Assembly: GCF_050920415.1 (NCBI RefSeq)
Contig: NZ_CP169309.1
DNA: 64,000 nucleotides
Reading direction: 5' to 3' (one strand)
DNA from: Escherichia coli
Lineage (GTDB): Bacteria > Pseudomonadota > Gammaproteobacteria > Enterobacterales > Enterobacteriaceae
Below, one piece after another: positions 2,028 to 56,140 of the stretch. The notes under the pieces were generated by a model that saw nothing but the letters and a program-made list of their open reading frames with translations, searched no databases and had not been told where the DNA came from. Every line of letters begins with the position of its first letter. The stretch's first letter is position 1. Made by a program: the position numbers and the translations under genes.

Positions 2028-3116
2028 ATGCGTAAGCAGTGGCTCGGGATCTGCATCGCGGCAGGAATGCTCGCGGCATGTACAAGCGATGATGGTCAGC
2101 AACAGACGGTAAGTGTACCGCAGCCTGCGGTATGTAACGGCCCCATAGTTGAAATTAGCGGGGCGGACCCGCGTTTCGAACCACTGAACGCGACGGCAAA
2201 TCAGGATTACCAGCGCGATGGTAAAAGCTACAAAATCGTGCAGGATCCGTCTCGATTTAGCCAGGCGGGACTGGCGGCAATCTATGATGCCGAACCAGGC
2301 AGTAACCTGACGGCCTCTGGCGAAGCTTTCGATCCGACACAGCTGACGGCGGCCCATCCAACGCTTCCGATCCCCAGCTACGCCAGAATCACTAACCTGG
2401 CTAACGGGCGAATGATCGTGGTGCGCATTAATGATCGCGGTCCTTATGGCAACGACCGCGTTATTTCGCTTTCTCGCGCAGCAGCTGACCGTCTTAACAC
2501 GTCAAACAACACCAAAGTTCGTATCGATCCGATTATTGTCGCCCAGGATGGTTCGCTTTCTGGTCCTGGTATGGCTTGTACCACAGTCGCCAAACAGACT
2601 TACGCCCTGCCTGCACCTCCCGATTTAAGCGGCGGCGCAGGAACAAGTTCAGTGTCTGGCCCGCAGGGTGACATTCTTCCGGTCAGTAATTCGACGCTAA
2701 AAAGCGAAGATCCGACTGGCGCGCCGGTAACCAGCAGCGGTTTCCTCGGCGCACCAACGACCTTAGCGCCTGGTGTTCTGGAAGGCAGCGAACCAACGCC
2801 TGCACCACAGCCCGTTGTTACAGCTCCCTCGACAACGCCTGCAACCTCGCCTGCAATGGTGACACCGCAAGCCGCCTCGCAAAGCGCTAGCGGCAACTTT
2901 ATGGTGCAAGTTGGGGCAGTAAGCGATCAGGCGCGTGCGCAACAGTACCAACAGCAACTGGGACAGAAGTTCGGCGTCCCCGGTCGCGTAACTCAAAATG
3001 GCGCGGTCTGGCGGATCCAGCTTGGCCCATTCGCCAGCAAAGCCGAAGCCAGTACCTTGCAGCAACGTTTGCAAACCGAAGCCCAATTGCAGTCATTTAT
3101 TACCACCGCGCAGTAG
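2028..3116 (+). CDS. rlpA: Rare lipoprotein A (lytic transglycosylase, C-terminal SPOR domain)
   Basis: 362-aa ORF with lipoprotein signal (..LAACTSD), Pro/Thr/Ala-rich linker and SPOR-like C-terminus; synteny. Confidence 0.93.
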   Translation: MRKQWLGICIAAGMLAACTSDDGQQQTVSVPQPAVCNGPIVEISGADPRFEPLNATANQDYQRDGKSYKIVQDPSRFSQAGLAAIYDAEPGSNLTASGEAFDPTQLTAAHPTLPIPSYARITNLANGRMIVVRINDRGPYGNDRVISLSRAAADRLNTSNNTKVRIDPIIVAQDGSLSGPGMACTTVAKQTYALPAPPDLSGGAGTSSVSGPQGDILPVSNSTLKSEDPTGAPVTSSGFLGAPTTLAPGVLEGSEPTPAPQPVVTAPSTTPATSPAMVTPQAASQSASGNFMVQVGAVSDQARAQQYQQQLGQKFGVPGRVTQNGAVWRIQLGPFASKAEASTLQQRLQTEAQLQSFITTAQ

Positions 3117-3255
3117 CGTAAAGCAGGCATCTGATGTGTCAATTTCTGTAAATGACGTTAACAAAGTCACGCGGAAAGTCAGATGCCTGCCGGTAGTGCA
3201 TTTGCTATAGTAGGGCACTTTTTTTAATTCCATCACGGATGTCGTAGTTCAGACC

Positions 3256-4467
3256 ATGAATACCATTTTTTCCGCTCGTATCATGAAGCGCCTGGCGCTC
3301 ACCACGGCTCTTTGCACAGCCTTTATCTCTGCTGCACATGCCGATGACCTGAATATCAAAACTATGATCCCGGGTGTACCGCAGATCGATGCGGAGTCCT
3401 ACATCCTGATTGACTATAACTCGGGCAAAGTGCTCGCCGAACAGAACGCAGATGTCCGCCGCGATCCTGCCAGTCTGACCAAAATGATGACCAGTTACGT
3501 TATCGGCCAGGCAATGAAAGCCGGTAAATTTAAAGAAACTGATTTAGTCACCATCGGCAACGACGCATGGGCCACCGGTAACCCGGTATTTAAAGGTTCT
3601 TCGCTGATGTTCCTCAAACCGGGCATGCAGGTTCCGGTTTCTCAGCTGATCCGCGGTATTAACCTGCAATCGGGTAACGATGCTTGCGTCGCCATGGCCG
3701 ATTTTGCCGCTGGTAGCCAGGACGCTTTTGTTGGCTTGATGAACAGCTACGTTAACGCACTGGGCCTGAAAAACACTCACTTCCAGACCGTGCACGGTCT
3801 CGACGCTGACGGTCAGTACAGCTCCGCGCGAGATATGGCGCTGATCGGCCAGGCGTTGATCCGTGACGTACCGAATGAATACTCGATCTATAAAGAAAAA
3901 GAATTTACGTTTAACGGTATTCGCCAGCTGAACCGTAACGGCCTGTTATGGGATAACAGCCTGAATGTCGACGGCATCAAAACCGGACACACTGACAAAG
4001 CAGGTTACAACCTTGTTGCTTCTGCGACTGAAGGCCAGATGCGCTTGATCTCTGCGGTGATGGGCGGACGTACTTTTAAAGGCCGTGAAGCCGAAAGTAA
4101 AAAACTGCTAACCTGGGGCTTCCGTTTCTTCGAAACCGTTAACCCACTGAAAGTAGGTAAAGAGTTCGCCTCTGAACCGGTTTGGTTTGGTGATTCTGAT
4201 CGCGCTTCGTTAGGTGTTGATAAAGACGTGTACCTGACCATTCCGCGTGGCCGCATGAAAGATCTGAAAGCCAGCTATGTGCTGAACAGCAGTGAATTGC
4301 ATGCGCCGCTGCAAAAGAATCAGGTCGTCGGTACTATCAACTTCCAGCTTGATGGCAAAACGATCGAACAACGCCCGCTGGTTGTGCTGCAAGAAATCCC
4401 GGAAGGCAACTTCTTCGGCAAAATCATTGATTACATTAAGTTAATGTTCCATCACTGGTTTGGTTAA
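3256..4467 (+). CDS. dacA: D-alanyl-D-alanine carboxypeptidase DacA (PBP5)
   Basis: 403-aa ORF with signal peptide and SxxK active-site motif (ASLTK); synteny. Confidence 0.95.
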
Positions 4468-5841: not shown

Positions 5842-6795
5842 GTGGATAGTAATAATCAAATTGAAACCTGTTTAAGCAGAAAGTCGTCAGAAGGTAAACC
5901 ACAAATATTTACAACCTTACGAAATATTGATCTTAACCTTCTGACTATTTTTGAAGCTGTGTATGTGCATAAAGGGATCGTTAATGCAGCGAAAGTGCTT
6001 AATCTGACACCCTCAGCAATCAGTCAGTCTATTCAGAAACTGCGCGTTATATTCCCTGACCCATTGTTTATTCGCAAAGGCCAGGGCGTCACTCCTACTG
6101 CATTTGCAATGCATTTGCATGAGTATATCAGTCAGGGCCTTGAATCCATTCTCGGCGCGCTGGATATCGAAGGAACCTATGATAAGCAACGAACGATAAC
6201 TATCGCGACCACCCCCTCGGTCGGAGCCCTGGTCCTTCCAGTCATCTATCGGGCGATTAAAACTCATTATCCGCAGCTTTTACTGCGCAACCCCCCTATC
6301 AGCGACGCGGAAAGCCAACTCAGTCAGTTTCAAACCGATCTCATCATTGATAACATGTTCTGCACCAATCGTACGGTACAACATCATGTTCTGTTCACCG
6401 ACAATATGGTGTTAATTTGCCGCGAGGGAAATTCGCTACTCTCCTTAGAAGATGACAGAGAGACTATCGAAAACGCTGCACATGTACTCCTGTTACCGGA
6501 AGGGCAAAATTTCAGCGGTTTGCGGCAGAGAGTTCAAGAGATGTTTCCGGACCGACAAATCAGTTTTACCAGCTACAACATTCTCACAATCGCTGCACTG
6601 GTTGCCAACAGTGACATGTTAGCGATTATTCCCAGCCGTTTTTATAATCTGTTTAGCCGTTGCTGGCCGCTGGAAAAGCTGCCTTTTCCGTCCTTAAATG
6701 AGGAGCAAATTGATTTCTCTATCCACTACAACAAATTCAGCCTGCGCGATCCTATCCTGCATGGGGTTATAGATGTTATCCGTAATGCATTTTGA
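5842..6795 (+). CDS. ybeF: LysR-family transcriptional regulator YbeF
   Basis: 317-aa ORF (GTG start) with N-terminal LysR-type HTH; AT-rich coding sequence; synteny between lipB and lipA. Confidence 0.9.
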   Translation: MDSNNQIETCLSRKSSEGKPQIFTTLRNIDLNLLTIFEAVYVHKGIVNAAKVLNLTPSAISQSIQKLRVIFPDPLFIRKGQGVTPTAFAMHLHEYISQGLESILGALDIEGTYDKQRTITIATTPSVGALVLPVIYRAIKTHYPQLLLRNPPISDAESQLSQFQTDLIIDNMFCTNRTVQHHVLFTDNMVLICREGNSLLSLEDDRETIENAAHVLLLPEGQNFSGLRQRVQEMFPDRQISFTSYNILTIAALVANSDMLAIIPSRFYNLFSRCWPLEKLPFPSLNEEQIDFSIHYNKFSLRDPILHGVIDVIRNAF

Positions 6796-7003
6796 GAAAG
6801 CGTTGTTACAGCCAGTTCACAGCGCAGCACGATAAAATGGCACAATCCAACAACAATTTTACATTTTCGCGACCGCTTTGGCTGCTTTCAAGCGCGTTTC
6901 AATGATATACTGCCAGTCGTTAATTCAAAAATAGTTGATAATTACAACAATCTATTGAATTGAAACGCTTTCCTTCGTAATTCGCAACTGGAACACGCAC
7001 GCT

Positions 7004-7969
7004 ATGAGTAAACCCATTGTGATGGAACGCGGTGTTAAATACCGCGATGCCGATAAGATGGCCCTTATCCCGGTTAAAAACGTGGCAACAGAGCGCGAAG
7101 CCCTGCTGCGCAAGCCGGAATGGATGAAAATCAAGCTTCCAGCGGACTCTACACGTATCCAGGGCATCAAAGCCGCAATGCGCAAAAATGGCCTGCATTC
7201 TGTCTGCGAGGAAGCCTCCTGCCCTAACCTGGCGGAATGCTTCAACCATGGCACAGCAACGTTTATGATCCTCGGCGCTATTTGTACCCGCCGTTGTCCG
7301 TTCTGTGACGTTGCCCACGGTCGCCCGGTAGCTCCAGATGCCAATGAACCAGTGAAACTGGCGCAGACCATTGCCGATATGGCGCTGCGTTATGTGGTTA
7401 TCACCTCCGTTGACCGTGATGACCTGCGCGATGGCGGTGCCCAGCACTTTGCGGATTGCATTACTGCCATTCGGGAAAAAAGCCCGCAAATCAAAATTGA
7501 AACTCTGGTGCCGGATTTCCGCGGTCGTATGGATCGTGCTCTGGATATTCTGACCGCCACACCACCAGATGTGTTCAACCATAACCTGGAAAACGTACCG
7601 CGTATTTACCGTCAGGTACGGCCTGGTGCAGATTACAACTGGTCGCTGAAGCTGCTGGAACGCTTTAAAGAAGCGCATCCGGAAATCCCGACCAAGTCTG
7701 GTCTGATGGTGGGTCTGGGTGAAACCAATGAAGAAATTATTGAGGTAATGCGCGACCTGCGCCGTCATGGTGTGACGATGCTAACGCTGGGGCAATATTT
7801 GCAGCCAAGCCGCCATCACCTGCCGGTTCAACGTTACGTTAGCCCGGATGAGTTCGACGAAATGAAAGCCGAAGCGCTGGCGATGGGCTTTACCCATGCT
7901 GCATGCGGTCCGTTTGTCCGCTCGTCTTACCACGCCGATTTGCAGGCGAAAGGGATGGAAGTTAAGTAA
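7004..7969 (+). CDS. lipA: Lipoyl synthase LipA (radical SAM)
   Basis: 321-aa ORF with CxxxCxxC radical-SAM motif (CTRRCPFC) plus the N-terminal Cys cluster. Confidence 0.96.
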
Positions 7970-27992: not shown

Positions 27993-28199
27993 AAGGTAAT
28001 TCATGGGTGGTTGAAATACATTCTTGCTTTTCAACCATTCTAAAAACGCATGAATTGCTTCTTCCCCTCCTGACAACTGTGTTACTTTAGAAAAACTTAA
28101 TCCAGAGTTAAGTAATAAAACATAACAAATATAAATAAAACAGTAGAATCATTGATTGCAAGAATGATTTATGGAAAAGATAATATAACGGAGTATGTT

Positions 28200-29102
28200 A
28201 TGGCTAATCTTTATGATTTAAAAAAATTCGACCTCAATTTACTGGTCATATTTGAGTGCATTTATCAACACCTCAGCATTAGCAAAGCAGCAGAATCATT
28301 ATATATAACGCCATCTGCCGTTAGTCAGTCGTTACAACGTTTACGCGTGCAATTTAATGACCCGTTATTCATCCGCTCAGGGAAAGGTATCGCGCCGACT
28401 ACAACAGGGTTAAATCTGCATCACCATCTTGAGAAAAATCTCCGAGGCCTTGAACAAACGATCAATATCGTTAATAAGTCTGAGCTGAAGAAAAATTTTA
28501 TTATCTACGGTCCTCAGCTTATTTCTTGTAGTAATAACAACATGCTAATCCGCTGTCTAAGACAAGATACTTCAATCGATATAGAATGCCATGACATACT
28601 GCTTTCAGCTGAAAACGCTGAAGAATTGTTAGTTCAACGCAAAGCTGACCTGGCAATTACACTGCAACCAGTAATTAGCCGCTCTGTCATCTGCATGCCG
28701 GTACATACTATTCGCAATTCTCTTATATGTAGCAACAAACATCCTCGTATTACCGATACCAGTAACTATGAACAAATTATCGCCGAAGAATTCACCTTGT
28801 TGATATCTAAATCAGCAGGGATTGACGAAATTCAAATGGACATAGATGAACGTTTTATGAACCGTAAAGTTTCATTTCGCAGTTCTTCTTTGTTGACGAT
28901 AATTAATAGTATTTCTGTTACTGACTTATTGGGCATTGTGCCCACCGAACTGTACGATTTACATCGTGATTTTTTGAAGTTACAAGAGATAAAACTGGAA
29001 CGACCACTTCCTACGGTTAAACTTTATATTTCCTATAACAAGGCTTCGTTGAACAACCTTGTCTTCTCACGATTCATAGATCGTTTAAATGATAGCTTCT
29101 GA
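28200..29102 (+). CDS. ybdO: LysR-family transcriptional regulator YbdO
   Basis: 300-aa AT-rich ORF starting MANLYDLKKFDLNLLVIFE with LysR HTH. Confidence 0.88.
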   Translation: MANLYDLKKFDLNLLVIFECIYQHLSISKAAESLYITPSAVSQSLQRLRVQFNDPLFIRSGKGIAPTTTGLNLHHHLEKNLRGLEQTINIVNKSELKKNFIIYGPQLISCSNNNMLIRCLRQDTSIDIECHDILLSAENAEELLVQRKADLAITLQPVISRSVICMPVHTIRNSLICSNKHPRITDTSNYEQIIAEEFTLLISKSAGIDEIQMDIDERFMNRKVSFRSSSLLTIINSISVTDLLGIVPTELYDLHRDFLKLQEIKLERPLPTVKLYISYNKASLNNLVFSRFIDRLNDSF

Positions 29103-29248
29103 TTTATTACCACGGATAAATGTTATATTACGCATCAATTGATTCATTGTGTGAATATAAAATAATGTGCTCTATCTTGCTTCGTTTACCCTATAATTAG
29201 CGGATTCATCTCACAAGTCACCCAGTAACGTTCAGAGAGCGTTTTCAG

Positions 29249-30469
29249 ATGTCTATTTATAAAATCCCTCTTCCGCTGAATATTTTAGAAGCTGCACAGG
29301 AACGTATTACCTGGACACTTAACACCTTGCCCCGTGTTTGCGTTTCTTTTTCGGGGGGTAAAGATTCCGGATTAATGCTGCATCTTACCGCCGAACTTGC
29401 CAGAAAATTGGGAAAAAAAATCTGCGTTTTGTTTATCGACTGGGAAGCACAGTTCTCTTGTACCATCGACTATGTACAGTCGTTACGCGAGTTGTATACC
29501 GACGTTATTGAAGAGTTTTACTGGGTAGCACTCCCACTCAAGACGCAAAATTCCCTTTCACAATACCAACCAGAATGGCAGTGCTGGGAATCTGATGTCG
29601 AATGGGTGCGTCAGCCCCCGCAAGAAGCGATAACCGATCCTGACTTTTTCTCCTTTTACCAGCCAGGCATGACCTTCGAACAATTTGTACGTGAGTTTGC
29701 CGAATGGTTTTCACAAAAACGTCCGGCGGCGATGATGATCGGCATCCGTGCGGATGAGTCCTACAACCGTTTTGTCGCCATCGCCAGTTTAAATAAACAA
29801 CGTTTTGCCGATGATAAGCCCTGGACCACAGCCGCACCAGGCGGTCACTGCTGGTACATTTACCCCATCTACGACTGGAAAGTAGCTGATATCTGGACCT
29901 GGTATGCTAATCATAAATCCCTATGTAACCCATTGTATAATATCATGTATCAGGCAGGCGTTCCCCTGCGTCATATGCGAATTTGCGAACCTTTTGGCCC
30001 GGAGCAACGGCAAGGATTATGGCTCTATCACGTTATCGAACCGGATCGCTGGGCTGCTATGTGCGCACGAGTTAGCGGGGTAAAAAGTGGCGGCATTTAC
30101 GCCGGACATGACAATCATTTTTATGGTCATCGGAAAATCCTCAAACCAGAGCATTTAGACTGGCAAGAGTATGCATTATTGCTGCTTGATAGCATGCCGG
30201 AGAAAACGGCTGAGCATTACCGCAACAAAATTGCCATTTACTTGCATTGGTATCAGAAAAAAGGTATCGAGGTGCCACAGACCCAGGACGGGGACATTGG
30301 CGCGAAAGATATCCCCTCCTGGCGGCGAATTTGCAAGGTGTTACTGAATAACGATTACTGGTGTCGGGCATTATCATTTAGCCCAACCAAAGCGAAGAAT
30401 TATCAGCGTTATAACGAACGGATAAAAGTAAAACGTCAGGAGTGGGGAATACTATGCAACAACAATTAA
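29249..30469 (+). CDS. ybdN: PAPS-reductase-like (ATP pyrophosphatase fold) protein YbdN, IbrA-like
   Basis: 406-aa ORF with SGGKDS P-loop-like motif near the N-terminus; AT-rich; synteny. Confidence 0.88.
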   Translation: MSIYKIPLPLNILEAAQERITWTLNTLPRVCVSFSGGKDSGLMLHLTAELARKLGKKICVLFIDWEAQFSCTIDYVQSLRELYTDVIEEFYWVALPLKTQNSLSQYQPEWQCWESDVEWVRQPPQEAITDPDFFSFYQPGMTFEQFVREFAEWFSQKRPAAMMIGIRADESYNRFVAIASLNKQRFADDKPWTTAAPGGHCWYIYPIYDWKVADIWTWYANHKSLCNPLYNIMYQAGVPLRHMRICEPFGPEQRQGLWLYHVIEPDRWAAMCARVSGVKSGGIYAGHDNHFYGHRKILKPEHLDWQEYALLLLDSMPEKTAEHYRNKIAIYLHWYQKKGIEVPQTQDGDIGAKDIPSWRRICKVLLNNDYWCRALSFSPTKAKNYQRYNERIKVKRQEWGILCNNN

Positions 30470-33777: not shown

Positions 33778-35883
33778 TTAGTGCGCGCCTTTCGCCTGCG
33801 CCACGATCTCCTCGACATTTTCCGGCATTGGCTCATACGGCGTTTCTTTCGCCGTTGGCTTCGGCTCTTTCAATGCCGCCAGTGCCGTCTTAATCGAGAA
33901 CAGTGCCAGAACCACCACAACCACCATAAAGAAGATGGTTAATCCGGCATCCAGACGGTTGTTGAACACCAGTTGCGCCAGTTGTGACTCAGTATACTGC
34001 GACGGAATATTGCCGCTGTCGATCATTGCCTGGAACTTGTTAGCAATCGCCAGGAAACCGACTTTCGCATCCGGGCTAAACGCTTTCTGCCAGCCTGCGG
34101 TCAGGGTACAAATCAGCAGCCAGGCCGTTGGTACCAGCGCCACCCAGGCGTAACGTTGACGTTTCATCTTGAACAACACCACGGCACAGAGCATCAGCGC
34201 CATCCCTGCCAGCATCTGGTTGGCAATACCAAACAGCGGCCACAGAGTGTTAATACCGCCCAGCGGATCGACCACGCCCTGATGCAGAAAGTAACCCCAA
34301 GCCAGCACGCACAGCGCCGTTGCCAGCAGGTTAGCAGGCAGTGAATCGGTCCGTTTCAGGCCCGGAGAAACCACGCCCAGCAGATCCTGCAACATAAAGC
34401 GCGCAGCACGCGTACCCGCATCCACCGCCGTCAGAATAAACAGTGCTTCAAACAGAATGGCGAAGTGATACCAGAACGCCACATCCATCATGCCACCCAG
34501 CGCGCCGTGCAGAATGTAGGCCATCCCCACCGCCAGGGTCGGCGCACCGCCCGCACGGGAAATGATCGACTGTTCACCCACTTCGCTGGCAATCTGATTT
34601 AACGTATCTGGCGTAATGCTAAAGCCCCAGCTACTCACTACCTGCGCAGCAGATGCCACTACATCCGCCGTCCCCGCCGGAGCCAGCACCGCCATCGGAC
34701 TGTTCATCGCGAAGTACACGCCCGGATCGATGATACAGGCAGAAACCAGTGCCATAATCGCCACGAAGGATTCCATCAACATCCCACCGTAGCCGATAAA
34801 GCACGCCTGACCTTCGTTCGCCAGCATCTTCGGTGTGGTGCCGGAAGAGATCAGCGCATGGAAGCCAGACACCGCGCCACAGGCGATAGTAATAAACAGG
34901 AACGGGAACAGATTACCGGTCCATACCGGGCCAGTGCCATCTACAAACTTGGTCAGCGCAGGCATGGTCAGCGTCGGACGCATAATCAAAATGCCTACCG
35001 CCAGACCGACGATAGTCCCGATTTTCAGGAAGGTAGAGAGGTAGTCACGCGGAGCCAGCAGCAACCACACCGGCAGAACCGCCGCCACAAAACCGTAACC
35101 CACCAGCATCCAGGTCAGCTGCACGCCGGTAAAGTCAAAGTACGGTGCCCAAGTCGGGCTTTCTGCCACCCAGCCGCCAGAGATAATGGCGAAAATAAGG
35201 AATACCAGGCCAATCACCGACACTTCCCCAATGCGGCCTGGACGCAGATAGCGCAGGTAAATCCCCATGAACAGCGCCAGCGGAATGGTGAACGCAACGG
35301 TATACGTTCCCCACGGGCTATGAGTCAGGGCTTTCACCACGATCATCGCCAGTACTGCAAGGATAATGACCATGATCATAAAGCAGGCCACCAGCGCAAT
35401 CACCCCGGCGGTTGGCCCCATCTCTTCTTTAACCAGCTCGCCCAGCGAGCGACCGTCACGGCGCGTGGAAACAAACAGCACCATGAAATCCTGCACCGCA
35501 CCGGCGAGAACCACCCCGGCAAGTAGCCAGATCATCCCCGGTAGGTAGCCCATTTGCGCCGCCAGTACCGGCCCCACCAACGGGCCTGCTCCGGCAATGG
35601 CCGCAAAATGGTGACCGAACAGCACTTTCTTGTCCGTCGGCACATAGTCCAGCCCGTCGTTATGGCGCACCGCTGGCGTCATACGCGTCGGGTCAACCGC
35701 CAATACATTTTTGGCAATATAAAGACCATAAAAACGGTAAGCGATCAGATAGATACAGACCGACGCCACCACAATCCACAGCGCGTTGATCTGTTCCCCA
35801 CGATTTAAAGCAATGTATCCCAGAGCAAATGCTCCCATTACAGAGAGCACTGTCCAGACGAGGTATTTCCCTGATTTGTTCAT
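33778..35883 (-). CDS. cstA: Carbon starvation protein A (peptide/pyruvate transporter)
   Basis: 701-aa polytopic membrane ORF; CstA family. Confidence 0.95.
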   Translation of the reverse strand: MNKSGKYLVWTVLSVMGAFALGYIALNRGEQINALWIVVASVCIYLIAYRFYGLYIAKNVLAVDPTRMTPAVRHNDGLDYVPTDKKVLFGHHFAAIAGAGPLVGPVLAAQMGYLPGMIWLLAGVVLAGAVQDFMVLFVSTRRDGRSLGELVKEEMGPTAGVIALVACFMIMVIILAVLAMIVVKALTHSPWGTYTVAFTIPLALFMGIYLRYLRPGRIGEVSVIGLVFLIFAIISGGWVAESPTWAPYFDFTGVQLTWMLVGYGFVAAVLPVWLLLAPRDYLSTFLKIGTIVGLAVGILIMRPTLTMPALTKFVDGTGPVWTGNLFPFLFITIACGAVSGFHALISSGTTPKMLANEGQACFIGYGGMLMESFVAIMALVSACIIDPGVYFAMNSPMAVLAPAGTADVVASAAQVVSSWGFSITPDTLNQIASEVGEQSIISRAGGAPTLAVGMAYILHGALGGMMDVAFWYHFAILFEALFILTAVDAGTRAARFMLQDLLGVVSPGLKRTDSLPANLLATALCVLAWGYFLHQGVVDPLGGINTLWPLFGIANQMLAGMALMLCAVVLFKMKRQRYAWVALVPTAWLLICTLTAGWQKAFSPDAKVGFLAIANKFQAMIDSGNIPSQYTESQLAQLVFNNRLDAGLTIFFMVVVVVLALFSIKTALAALKEPKPTAKETPYEPMPENVEEIVAQAKGAH

Positions 35884-36194
35884 AGTTGTTATCCGTGTGC
35901 GTGTCCATAGAGATGTTACATTTTGTTTCTATATCAGCAGATTTTATTTAACAACCAAGAAACCAATGCGCACAACAAAAACACCTCATATTTACATCAC
36001 ATTGTTAACGAGATCACTTTAGTCGCGAAAAGACGTGTACAATTACGGACAATTGAGAGGGTTGACTCACCAGAGTAGTAACACTACTTATATGCGAAAA
36101 TGCATAGCCGAAATCTATAGTATTCCGCGTCAATGTTATGCAACGCAACTATACGATAGCATGGCTATTTCGTTATATGATAAGGAGTCCTCCC

Positions 36195-36617
36195 ATGAGC
36201 TATGACAAAGCGAAATACCATTTTGACTCGGTTATAGAAGAAGGTTTACCGCTCAGCCAGGCATACATCCATACTGGTTTTTATTTAGGTTGGTTGATTG
36301 ATAATAACTTGTTGGACGAGGAGTTTAAGGAAGATCTCGCTGAATCTCTTGCCCTCTTTACGCGCAGAGAAATAACAGCCCCTCAGCTTTTTGAAGAATT
36401 CGATGGTACTTTGACCGATGAAGAACTTTCGACCCAAGGAAACGCCTTTACTAAACATTATTTTGATTTTGATACAGGCGATTATCTCGAAGACTACTGC
36501 ACCCATCTTGTCAAAGATCTTCCCAGCGAATTCCATGTAAAAGACACATGGGAAAACTATAAAATCGCAGCGAGTTTCATATCCAGACGCTATCAGGAAT
36601 GGCTACAGAACCAATAG
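36195..36617 (+). CDS. Hypothetical 140-aa acidic cytoplasmic protein of unknown function (MSYDKAKYHFDSV..), in an AT-rich insertion
   Basis: Uninterrupted ORF; strong RBS (TAAGGAG, 7-nt spacer) before ATG 36195; an in-frame ATG at 36138 has no RBS; no TM or signal peptide; ~40% GC; I could not assign a family from sequence. Confidence 0.7.
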   Translation: MSYDKAKYHFDSVIEEGLPLSQAYIHTGFYLGWLIDNNLLDEEFKEDLAESLALFTRREITAPQLFEEFDGTLTDEELSTQGNAFTKHYFDFDTGDYLEDYCTHLVKDLPSEFHVKDTWENYKIAASFISRRYQEWLQNQ

Positions 36618-36683
36618 TCTCACCCTCTGCACATATTTTTCCGGGTAGCGCTTTCACTTACCAGGCCAACAAATTCTCGCGAA

Positions 36684-36716
36684 TCGTAGGCCTGATAAGC
36701 GAAGCGCATCAGGCAT
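36684..36716. repeat. REP (repetitive extragenic palindrome) element
   Basis: gtaggcctgataagcgaagcgcatcaggca, the typical E. coli REP palindrome, between the hypothetical ORF and the entH 3' end. Confidence 0.75.
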
Positions 36717-36727
36717 ATTAATCCAAT

Positions 36728-37889
<1,162 letters not shown>

Positions 37890-56037: not shown

Positions 56038-56140
56038 ATGCCGGATGCGGCGTGAACGCCTTATCCGGCCTACAAAAATCTTGCCAATTCAATATATTGC
56101 AGGATAGTGTAGGCCTGATAAGCGTAGCGCATCAGGCAGT
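56038..56140. repeat. BIME (two REP palindromes) between fepA and entD
   Basis: tgccggatgcggcgtgaacgccttatccggcctac and gtaggcctgataagcgtagcgcatcaggca in opposite orientation. Confidence 0.75.

Follow-up and report, generated by a model that had tools for sequence, protein, structure and literature searches.

Between cstA and entH, the Escherichia coli window (the whole 64,000-nucleotide stretch of DNA analysed here) carries an intact, selectively maintained gene of the DUF7832 family, located on a low-GC segment of about 0.7 kb whose presence or absence at the cstA-entH junction is a rare polymorphism. The identity of the gene as a DUF7832 member and the picture of its distribution in the population are near certain, and gene and family are already catalogued. 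In the best-supported functional reading, to which we assign a probability of about 0.38, the product would be a small cytoplasmic protein of the immunity type, an orphan from polymorphic-toxin conflicts.

The gap spans positions 35884-36727 of the window and is bounded by cstA on its left (33778-35883, minus strand) and by entH on its right (36728-37141, minus strand). Its length is 844 bp, compared with 180 bp in a K-12-type genome, in agreement with a preliminary description of this DNA, which had given about 845 bp here and about 180 bp in K-12. The leftmost part of the gap, 35884-36019, represents the leader and promoter region of cstA (minus strand) and is homologous to the K-12 and Salmonella spacers. 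Its first 51 bp (35884-35934) match K-12 and the O145 haplotype described below at 98-100% identity; the remainder (35935-36019; identities measured up to 36030) shows approximately 55% identity to K-12 in a multiple alignment and 82-85% identity to Pseudocitrobacter. Near the end of this region, a CRP-like site of the TGTGA-N6-TCACA type, tgttaacgagatcact, is found at 36003-36018, with four of five matches per half-site. Judged by consensus alone, it is a candidate CRP site, and the CRP-like half-sites also occur in the short spacers of K-12 and Salmonella.

Aligned locally to the gap, the K-12 and Salmonella spacers reach approximately gap position 136 (~36019), beyond which there is no K-12 counterpart until the final codons of entH. 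The extra segment of ~0.7 kb, 36020-36727, which has no counterpart in the 180-bp K-12 spacer or the 181-bp Salmonella spacer, is made up of 175 bp of AT-rich upstream sequence, the open reading frame (ORF), and a 110-bp tail containing a REP element. On its far side, the 3' end of entH (36728-36745, minus strand) belongs to a variant haplotype, encoding a C-terminus that reads ..AVIG before the stop codon, compared with ..AVLG in K-12; all annotated carriers examined share the EntH protein WP_000637952.1, and the K-12 type is WP_000637953.1. The preliminary description called the whole an AT-rich insertion. An extra AT-rich segment that varies between strains and is additional relative to K-12 is indeed present, but its boundaries are not those of a clean insertion, a reading that we rejected since 35935-36019 is homologous though strongly diverged and the end of entH differs too. 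A consensus scan of the segment detects neither a sigma-70-like promoter nor a terminator on the plus strand, and an Rfam search of 35600-37000 returns no match. For the biology of cstA and enterobactin, there is no evident effect, save that the promoter region of cstA is displaced and diversified in its distal part.

The ORF occupies 36195-36617 on the plus strand, encodes 140 amino acids, and is preceded by the Shine-Dalgarno sequence TAAGGAG at 36181-36187 (plus strand), 7 nt before the ATG. The well-formed gene, its TAAGGAG ribosome-binding site, and the REP element, all previously described from this AT-rich gap, are confirmed. The ORF corresponds exactly to the RefSeq coding sequence WP_000119449.1 of E. 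coli strain MFDS1022581, and over a 1201-bp test segment that strain and the window are 100% identical. A longer reading of 159 amino acids from an ATG at 36138 was rejected, as the close homologues all begin MSYDKAKYH. The GC content of the ORF is 40.9% (GC3 41.8%), compared with 56.5% for cstA and 57.5% for entH. The protein was expected to be acidic and soluble, and the calculated properties bear this out: it has a pI of 4.4, 28 Asp and Glu versus 11 Lys and Arg, and a net charge of about -17, it lacks any hydrophobic stretch (maximum 19-residue Kyte-Doolittle mean of 0.75), and neither a signal peptide nor a transmembrane segment is found along its 140 residues. Comparison of the ORF with its orthologues yields dN/dS values of 0.05-0.23, indicating purifying selection.

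The preliminary description could place the protein in no family, yet it belongs, with a full-length match, to Pfam DUF7832 (PF25191): residues 3-115 match positions 2-115 of the 115-position model at 124 bits, and several RefSeq records already carry that name. This Pfam match (E=4.4e-36), together with the dN/dS values, establishes that the ORF is more than a chance reading frame. At E≤1e-3, exhaustive searching with phmmer yields 1138 representatives of clusters formed at 50%, and the family is distributed over Proteobacteria, Bacillota, Bacteroidota, Planctomycetota, Verrucomicrobiota, and others. Asp4, Ala6, His9, Leu18, Trp33, Phe85, Tyr89, and Asp100 hardly vary among members, which also share the N-terminal motif YDKAKYH, and in an alignment of 59 members, the window protein has the consensus residue at all nearly invariant columns; His26 and His114 are frequent among members. 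Besides YDKAKYH, the E. coli protein shares the HTGxxLGW, GNxFxxxYF, and DY motifs of the family.

The AlphaFold2 model of the 140-residue protein (pLDDT 96.9) is mainly alpha-helical, and the predicted fold superposes on AFDB models of DUF7832 proteins with TM-scores up to 0.97. Among the best 50 matches in AFDB50, almost all are named DUF7832 and have query-normalised TM-scores of 0.88-0.97, and the two named otherwise (DUF2809 and Lon N-terminal) are longer proteins; the AFDB50 structure search returned members of the DUF7832 family and nothing else. Among solved proteins, no fold match to the model was found, a sequence-profile search of the PDB gave no match, and NCBIfam gave only a noise match. 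Sequence and structure searches of the kind proposed earlier assigned the protein to DUF7832 and matched it to no solved structure. PADLOC, run on the protein (36195-36614), aligns residues 63-127 with Csx1 (E=1e-3) and, at similar profile positions, with CARF4-CARF_PDDEXK (E=0.02). We treated kinship with Csx1/CARF as noise, since these matches are marginal and have no support from the fold. Searches for literature on DUF7832, PF25191, and the RefSeq accessions found none.

Domain architecture varies within the family. The 38 multi-domain relatives include two or three WGR fusions, two TIR_2 fusions (one match each to ThsB_TIR and TIR), and single fusions to GrpB, Lon-N, and Hsp70. Approximately 40% of the top profile matches are proteins of ~220 amino acids with an N-terminal domain of ~78 residues whose similarity to WGR is weak; some relatives end in transmembrane segments, and many end in a basic-aromatic KKPFWKFW tail. 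The E. coli protein differs from these in being the minimal stand-alone form, with neither the WGR-like N-terminal domain nor the KKPFWKFW tail. Comprising more than 1100 clusters at 50% identity from many phyla, with no solved structure and no literature, DUF7832 has some value as a target for characterization.

Within E. coli, the segment is rare. Megablast and blastn searches against 5426 complete genomes locate it in 33 (0.6%), at one chromosomal place in each, and the position between cstA and entH is confirmed in the four annotated E. coli carriers. The BLASTN survey that had been suggested for this interval thus establishes a presence/absence polymorphism, with the K-12 type among the genomes that have no copy. 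The carriers fall into two haplotypes, one of 5 genomes at least 99.7% identical to the window and the other of 28 genomes, mostly O145 or O145:H28, that are ~95.7% identical to it. Between the haplotypes, synonymous divergence (dS) amounts to 0.12 for the ORF, 0.20 for cstA, and 0.23 for entH, and the dN/dS of the ORF is 0.05 (9 synonymous and 2 non-synonymous changes). Of the 33 complete carrier genomes, 32 have an intact ORF. The carrier C325, one of the 28, has a 4-bp length difference and a frameshifted gene, annotated with 107 amino acids (2849-3172 of locus L065); the same 107-residue truncated product appears on 38 contigs in public data, and another truncation is 101 residues long. 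The EntH protein is identical in both long haplotypes (compared between the window, 36728-37141, and positions 3279-3692 of locus L064) despite 4.8% DNA divergence of the gene (dS 0.23, dN 0).

Comparison with other species suggests the polarity of the difference. The 181-bp spacer of Salmonella enterica aligns end to end with that of K-12 at 76.7% identity, and from the presence of the short spacer in both we infer that the short form is probably ancestral in the Escherichia/Salmonella group and the long form a derived insertion or replacement. An ancestral long form followed by deletion in K-12 is disfavoured, given the end-to-end homology of the Salmonella and K-12 spacers. Among 100,044 species representatives searched, those of Escherichia, Salmonella, and Citrobacter all lack the gene; the closest named match is in Budvicia aquatica (70% amino-acid identity), and a protein search also identifies a copy in Buttiauxella sp. 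(66% amino-acid identity). Exact-sequence look-ups show the same cstA-entH location in an E. fergusonii locus (L074, named from its EntA sequence) and in two Pseudocitrobacter loci (L071 and L072, named from EntH and EntA). At two additional enterobacterial loci (L069 and L070), the gene adjoins cstA and is followed by a YafT-family gene. Its occurrence in L074 and in no Escherichia representative implies that the gene is polymorphic within E. fergusonii too. Relative to Pseudocitrobacter, the window ORF retains 91.7% DNA identity, compared with 76-84% for the flanks, and the synonymous divergence is 0.36 for the ORF versus 0.88 for cstA and 1.37 for entH. That the ORF has diverged less than its flanks makes the gene younger than the split between its hosts and suggests that lineages have exchanged it. 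The locus offers a clean example of how a small gene can persist in several species, at a single core-genome junction, as a presence/absence polymorphism.

The route of this exchange is suggested by the surroundings of the segment. Apart from short matches expected by chance, it is flanked by no direct or inverted repeats, and no integrase, transposase, or IS lies within 3 kb on either side; the earlier remark that no partner toxin, integrase, or IS is adjacent holds, the neighbours being cstA and entH. Insertion of a mobile element was rejected on these grounds (no repeats and no mobility gene) and because the gene always occupies the same chromosomal site, in the four E. coli carriers, E. 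fergusonii, and Pseudocitrobacter. Since no repeats, integrase, or IS flank the segment, homologous recombination through the conserved flanks is most likely, and the segment would accordingly move between lineages through the conserved cstA and ent sequences on its two sides. The window copy itself appears to have arrived inside a larger, E. fergusonii-like block.

Identity to K-12 varies along the window. From ~27000 to 50700 (citR/ybdN through the ent and fep genes), the window is 91-96% identical to K-12, and from ~2000 to 27000 the mean identity is ~97.7%. Between ~31 and 42.6 kb, the window is 96.7-99.6% identical to the E. fergusonii locus. From these sequence comparisons, the region of ~27-50 kb looks like an interspecies recombinant block. 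Around citR/ybdO-ybdN (28001-30000), two 1-kb bins fall to 79.5% and 85.9% identity to K-12. In Pseudocitrobacter L071, a pair of genes encoding a ParE toxin and an HTH antitoxin lies between hcxA and ybdD (6569-7247) in a locus that is otherwise syntenic.

Relatives in other taxa supply genomic context for the functional argument. At the Buttiauxella locus (L003), genes for a TPR protein, DUF2314, DUF7832, DUF805, an unannotated protein, DUF805, and an LRR protein follow one another on the same strand, succeeded by an IS3 transposase. In a metagenomic locus whose DUF7832 protein is 63% identical (L009), DUF7832 is followed by DUF4288, Imm32, and many small ORFs interrupted by IS110. On a Priestia megaterium plasmid (L077), DUF7832 lies with LRR, SMI1/KNR4, YxiJ, and other small proteins, in the order LRR, SMI1/KNR4, DUF7832, YxiJ. 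DUF2314 corresponds to Imm34, and heterogeneous polyimmunity loci include ankyrin, LRR, Imm32, Imm34, and Imm47 (Zhang et al. 2012, PMC3482391). A scan of 90 neighbours, covering 12 of the 13 array-like loci together with L009 and one further metagenomic locus (L007), finds four ankyrin proteins, Imm47, DUF2314, and DUF4272 among them. Array-like loci, i.e., runs of at least five small same-strand genes, make up 13 of 54 loci, a raw count made without a background control, and the other 41 are not array-like.

Immediate neighbours are more heterogeneous. The 104 examined include housekeeping and metabolic genes and regulators, and neither a toxin domain nor a recurrent partner appears among the 20 commonest Pfam families listed for them. 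Among 14 upstream or overlapping genes in other taxa, most of which are tightly adjacent and which include HsdR, helicases, a DUF1501 protein, and GNAT, there is no toxin domain; one locus has the DUF7832 gene directly 3' of the gene for a type I restriction R subunit. A same-strand trio is conserved in Budvicia aquatica (L011, 6583-8447) and in two metagenomic loci (L007, 6589-8420; L008, 3576-5421). It consists of DUF4240 (160 aa), a beta-rich unannotated protein of 283-300 aa, and DUF7832, and is found downstream of GntR and MR_MLE genes; the assignments are based on Pfam for L007 and L008 and on ORF calls and alignments at 85-90% identity for L011. A profile-profile comparison of DUF4240 with DUF7832 reveals no relation. 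Relatives of DUF7832 are absent from 50,697 phage records, PHROGs, and 2.9 million viral contigs. Plasmids with a relative number 10 among 72,556, of which 8 are non-mobilizable.

Like many immunity proteins, the window protein is small and acidic and has neither a signal peptide nor a transmembrane segment. The context that favours an orphan immunity protein comes from a subset of loci, in which recognised immunity families stand beside DUF7832 (the Buttiauxella, 63%-identical metagenomic, and Priestia loci, and the array loci with four ankyrin proteins and Imm47). Under this reading, the E. coli product would be an orphan of the kind that gathers in heterogeneous polyimmunity loci, and it would bind and block a toxin domain injected by competing bacteria, with the cognate toxin not encoded nearby. 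Like the immunity proteins of such loci (Imm34/DUF2314, Imm32, Imm47, SUKH/SMI1-KNR4, and Imm-ank; PMC3482391), DUF7832 proteins are small, cytoplasmic, and sporadic across phyla, lie, in a minority of loci, beside those same families in arrays of small same-strand genes, and are sometimes fused to other poorly characterised small domains. However, DUF7832 is not one of the Imm families listed in PMC3482391, most of its copies, including that of the window, are solitary and outside arrays, and the protein has no sequence or fold relation to solved immunity proteins.

Several observations stand against the immunity reading. In Escherichia and Pseudocitrobacter, the gene is surrounded by core metabolic genes; the near-invariant Asp4, His9, and Asp100 could equally belong to a ligand-binding or catalytic site or to a toxin-binding surface; the TIR, WGR-like, Lon-N, Hsp70, and GrpB fusions are atypical of classical immunity proteins; and in neither the window nor the relatives examined is the gene found next to a toxin. 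The stand-alone immunity protein envisaged in the preliminary description thus gains from the proximity of relatives to immunity families in a minority of loci but not from any adjacent toxin in the loci examined; likewise, looking for homologues beside a toxin or in a defence island yielded no adjacent toxin and the one locus that follows the type I restriction R subunit. We keep the probability at the value given above because the argument is one of guilt by association, drawn from a minority of loci, with no background control and no cognate toxin. A more far-reaching version, which we hold tentatively and consider doubtful, is that DUF7832 is an unrecognised immunity or conflict family with a fold unlike solved structures, and that the cstA-entH copy is an orphan protective allele, maintained as a trans-species polymorphism of Escherichia and Pseudocitrobacter by toxin-armed competitors and neutralising a toxin class not yet linked to the family. 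If the immunity reading is true, a large uncharacterised family gains a function, and E. coli O145:H28 and a few other lineages hold private resistance to some interbacterial toxin; if it is false, this is an ordinary accessory gene.

A cytoplasmic accessory protein acting outside inter-bacterial conflict, e.g., a small enzyme or a protein that binds a small molecule or a metal, is a possible alternative, although we would not bet on it. The arrays would then reflect only how low-GC accessory genes in general tend to collect in variable regions. The near invariance of Asp4, His9, and Asp100 across phyla, with His26 and His114 frequent, speaks for such a protein, as do the strong purifying selection, the 41 of 54 loci that are not array-like, the metabolic genes and regulators among the neighbours, and the lack of an adjacent toxin in the loci examined (the 20 commonest Pfam families listed and the 14 upstream or overlapping genes). 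The fusions suggest another role, in which DUF7832 would be a sensor or adaptor module of conflict or defence systems that passes a signal to an effector such as the TIR domain, the stand-alone copy having its partner elsewhere or serving as a decoy. Two of the 38 multi-domain relatives are fused to TIR_2 and two or three to WGR, ~40% of the best members have the weakly WGR-like N-terminal domain of ~78 residues, one locus directly follows the type I restriction R subunit, and the marginal PADLOC match to Csx1/CARF models (E=1e-3) points the same way. However, the TIR fusions are rare, no PADLOC match rises above noise and the Csx1 match lacks fold support, most loci have no known defence system adjacent among the listed Pfam families, and the window copy has no partner gene; we therefore consider this role unlikely.

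The other functional suggestion of the preliminary description, a DNA-mimic anti-restriction protein, fares worst. As an anti-restriction or anti-defence protein of mobile-element origin, the product would resemble Ocr and ArdA in being small and strongly acidic (pI 4.4, net charge about -17), and the low GC content of its gene is in keeping with such an origin. Unlike those proteins, however, its family is not phage-borne and hardly plasmid-borne, and its fold is unrelated to theirs and to that of solved DNA mimics in general. Because relatives are absent from the phage collections (none in 50,697 phage genomes, PHROGs, or 2.9 million viral contigs) and few on plasmids (10 of 72,556, 8 of these non-mobilizable), the idea is disfavoured; the stable chromosomal site without mobile-element hallmarks and the failure to match any solved fold add to this, and we now give it almost no credence. 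Nor does it seem at all probable that the gene is a remnant, decaying or unexpressed, that no longer has a function in E. coli. The missing plus-strand consensus sigma-70 promoter and terminator, the truncated versions (107 aa in C325 and on 38 contigs; 101 aa), and the 99.4% of E. coli genomes that have no segment would agree with decay, but 32 of 33 complete carriers have an intact ORF, the haplotypes differ with a dN/dS of 0.05 (9 synonymous, 2 non-synonymous), and the ribosome-binding site is strong.

Downstream of the gene, between the convergent ORF and entH, an imperfect palindrome at 36686-36714 forms the repetitive extragenic palindromic (REP) element. It contains, on the complementary strand, GCCTGATGCG, which we take to be the REP consensus. 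The 68 bp at 36660-36727 that include it have matches in 5425 of the 5426 E. coli genomes, at a median of 29 places per genome. Elsewhere in the window, at 56109-56137, lies another copy, one mismatch away from 36686-36714. Intergenic and present in tens of copies per genome, the palindrome shows no difference from other E. coli REP elements. As an imperfect palindrome with many dispersed intergenic copies, 36686-36714 is a genuine, ordinary REP element.
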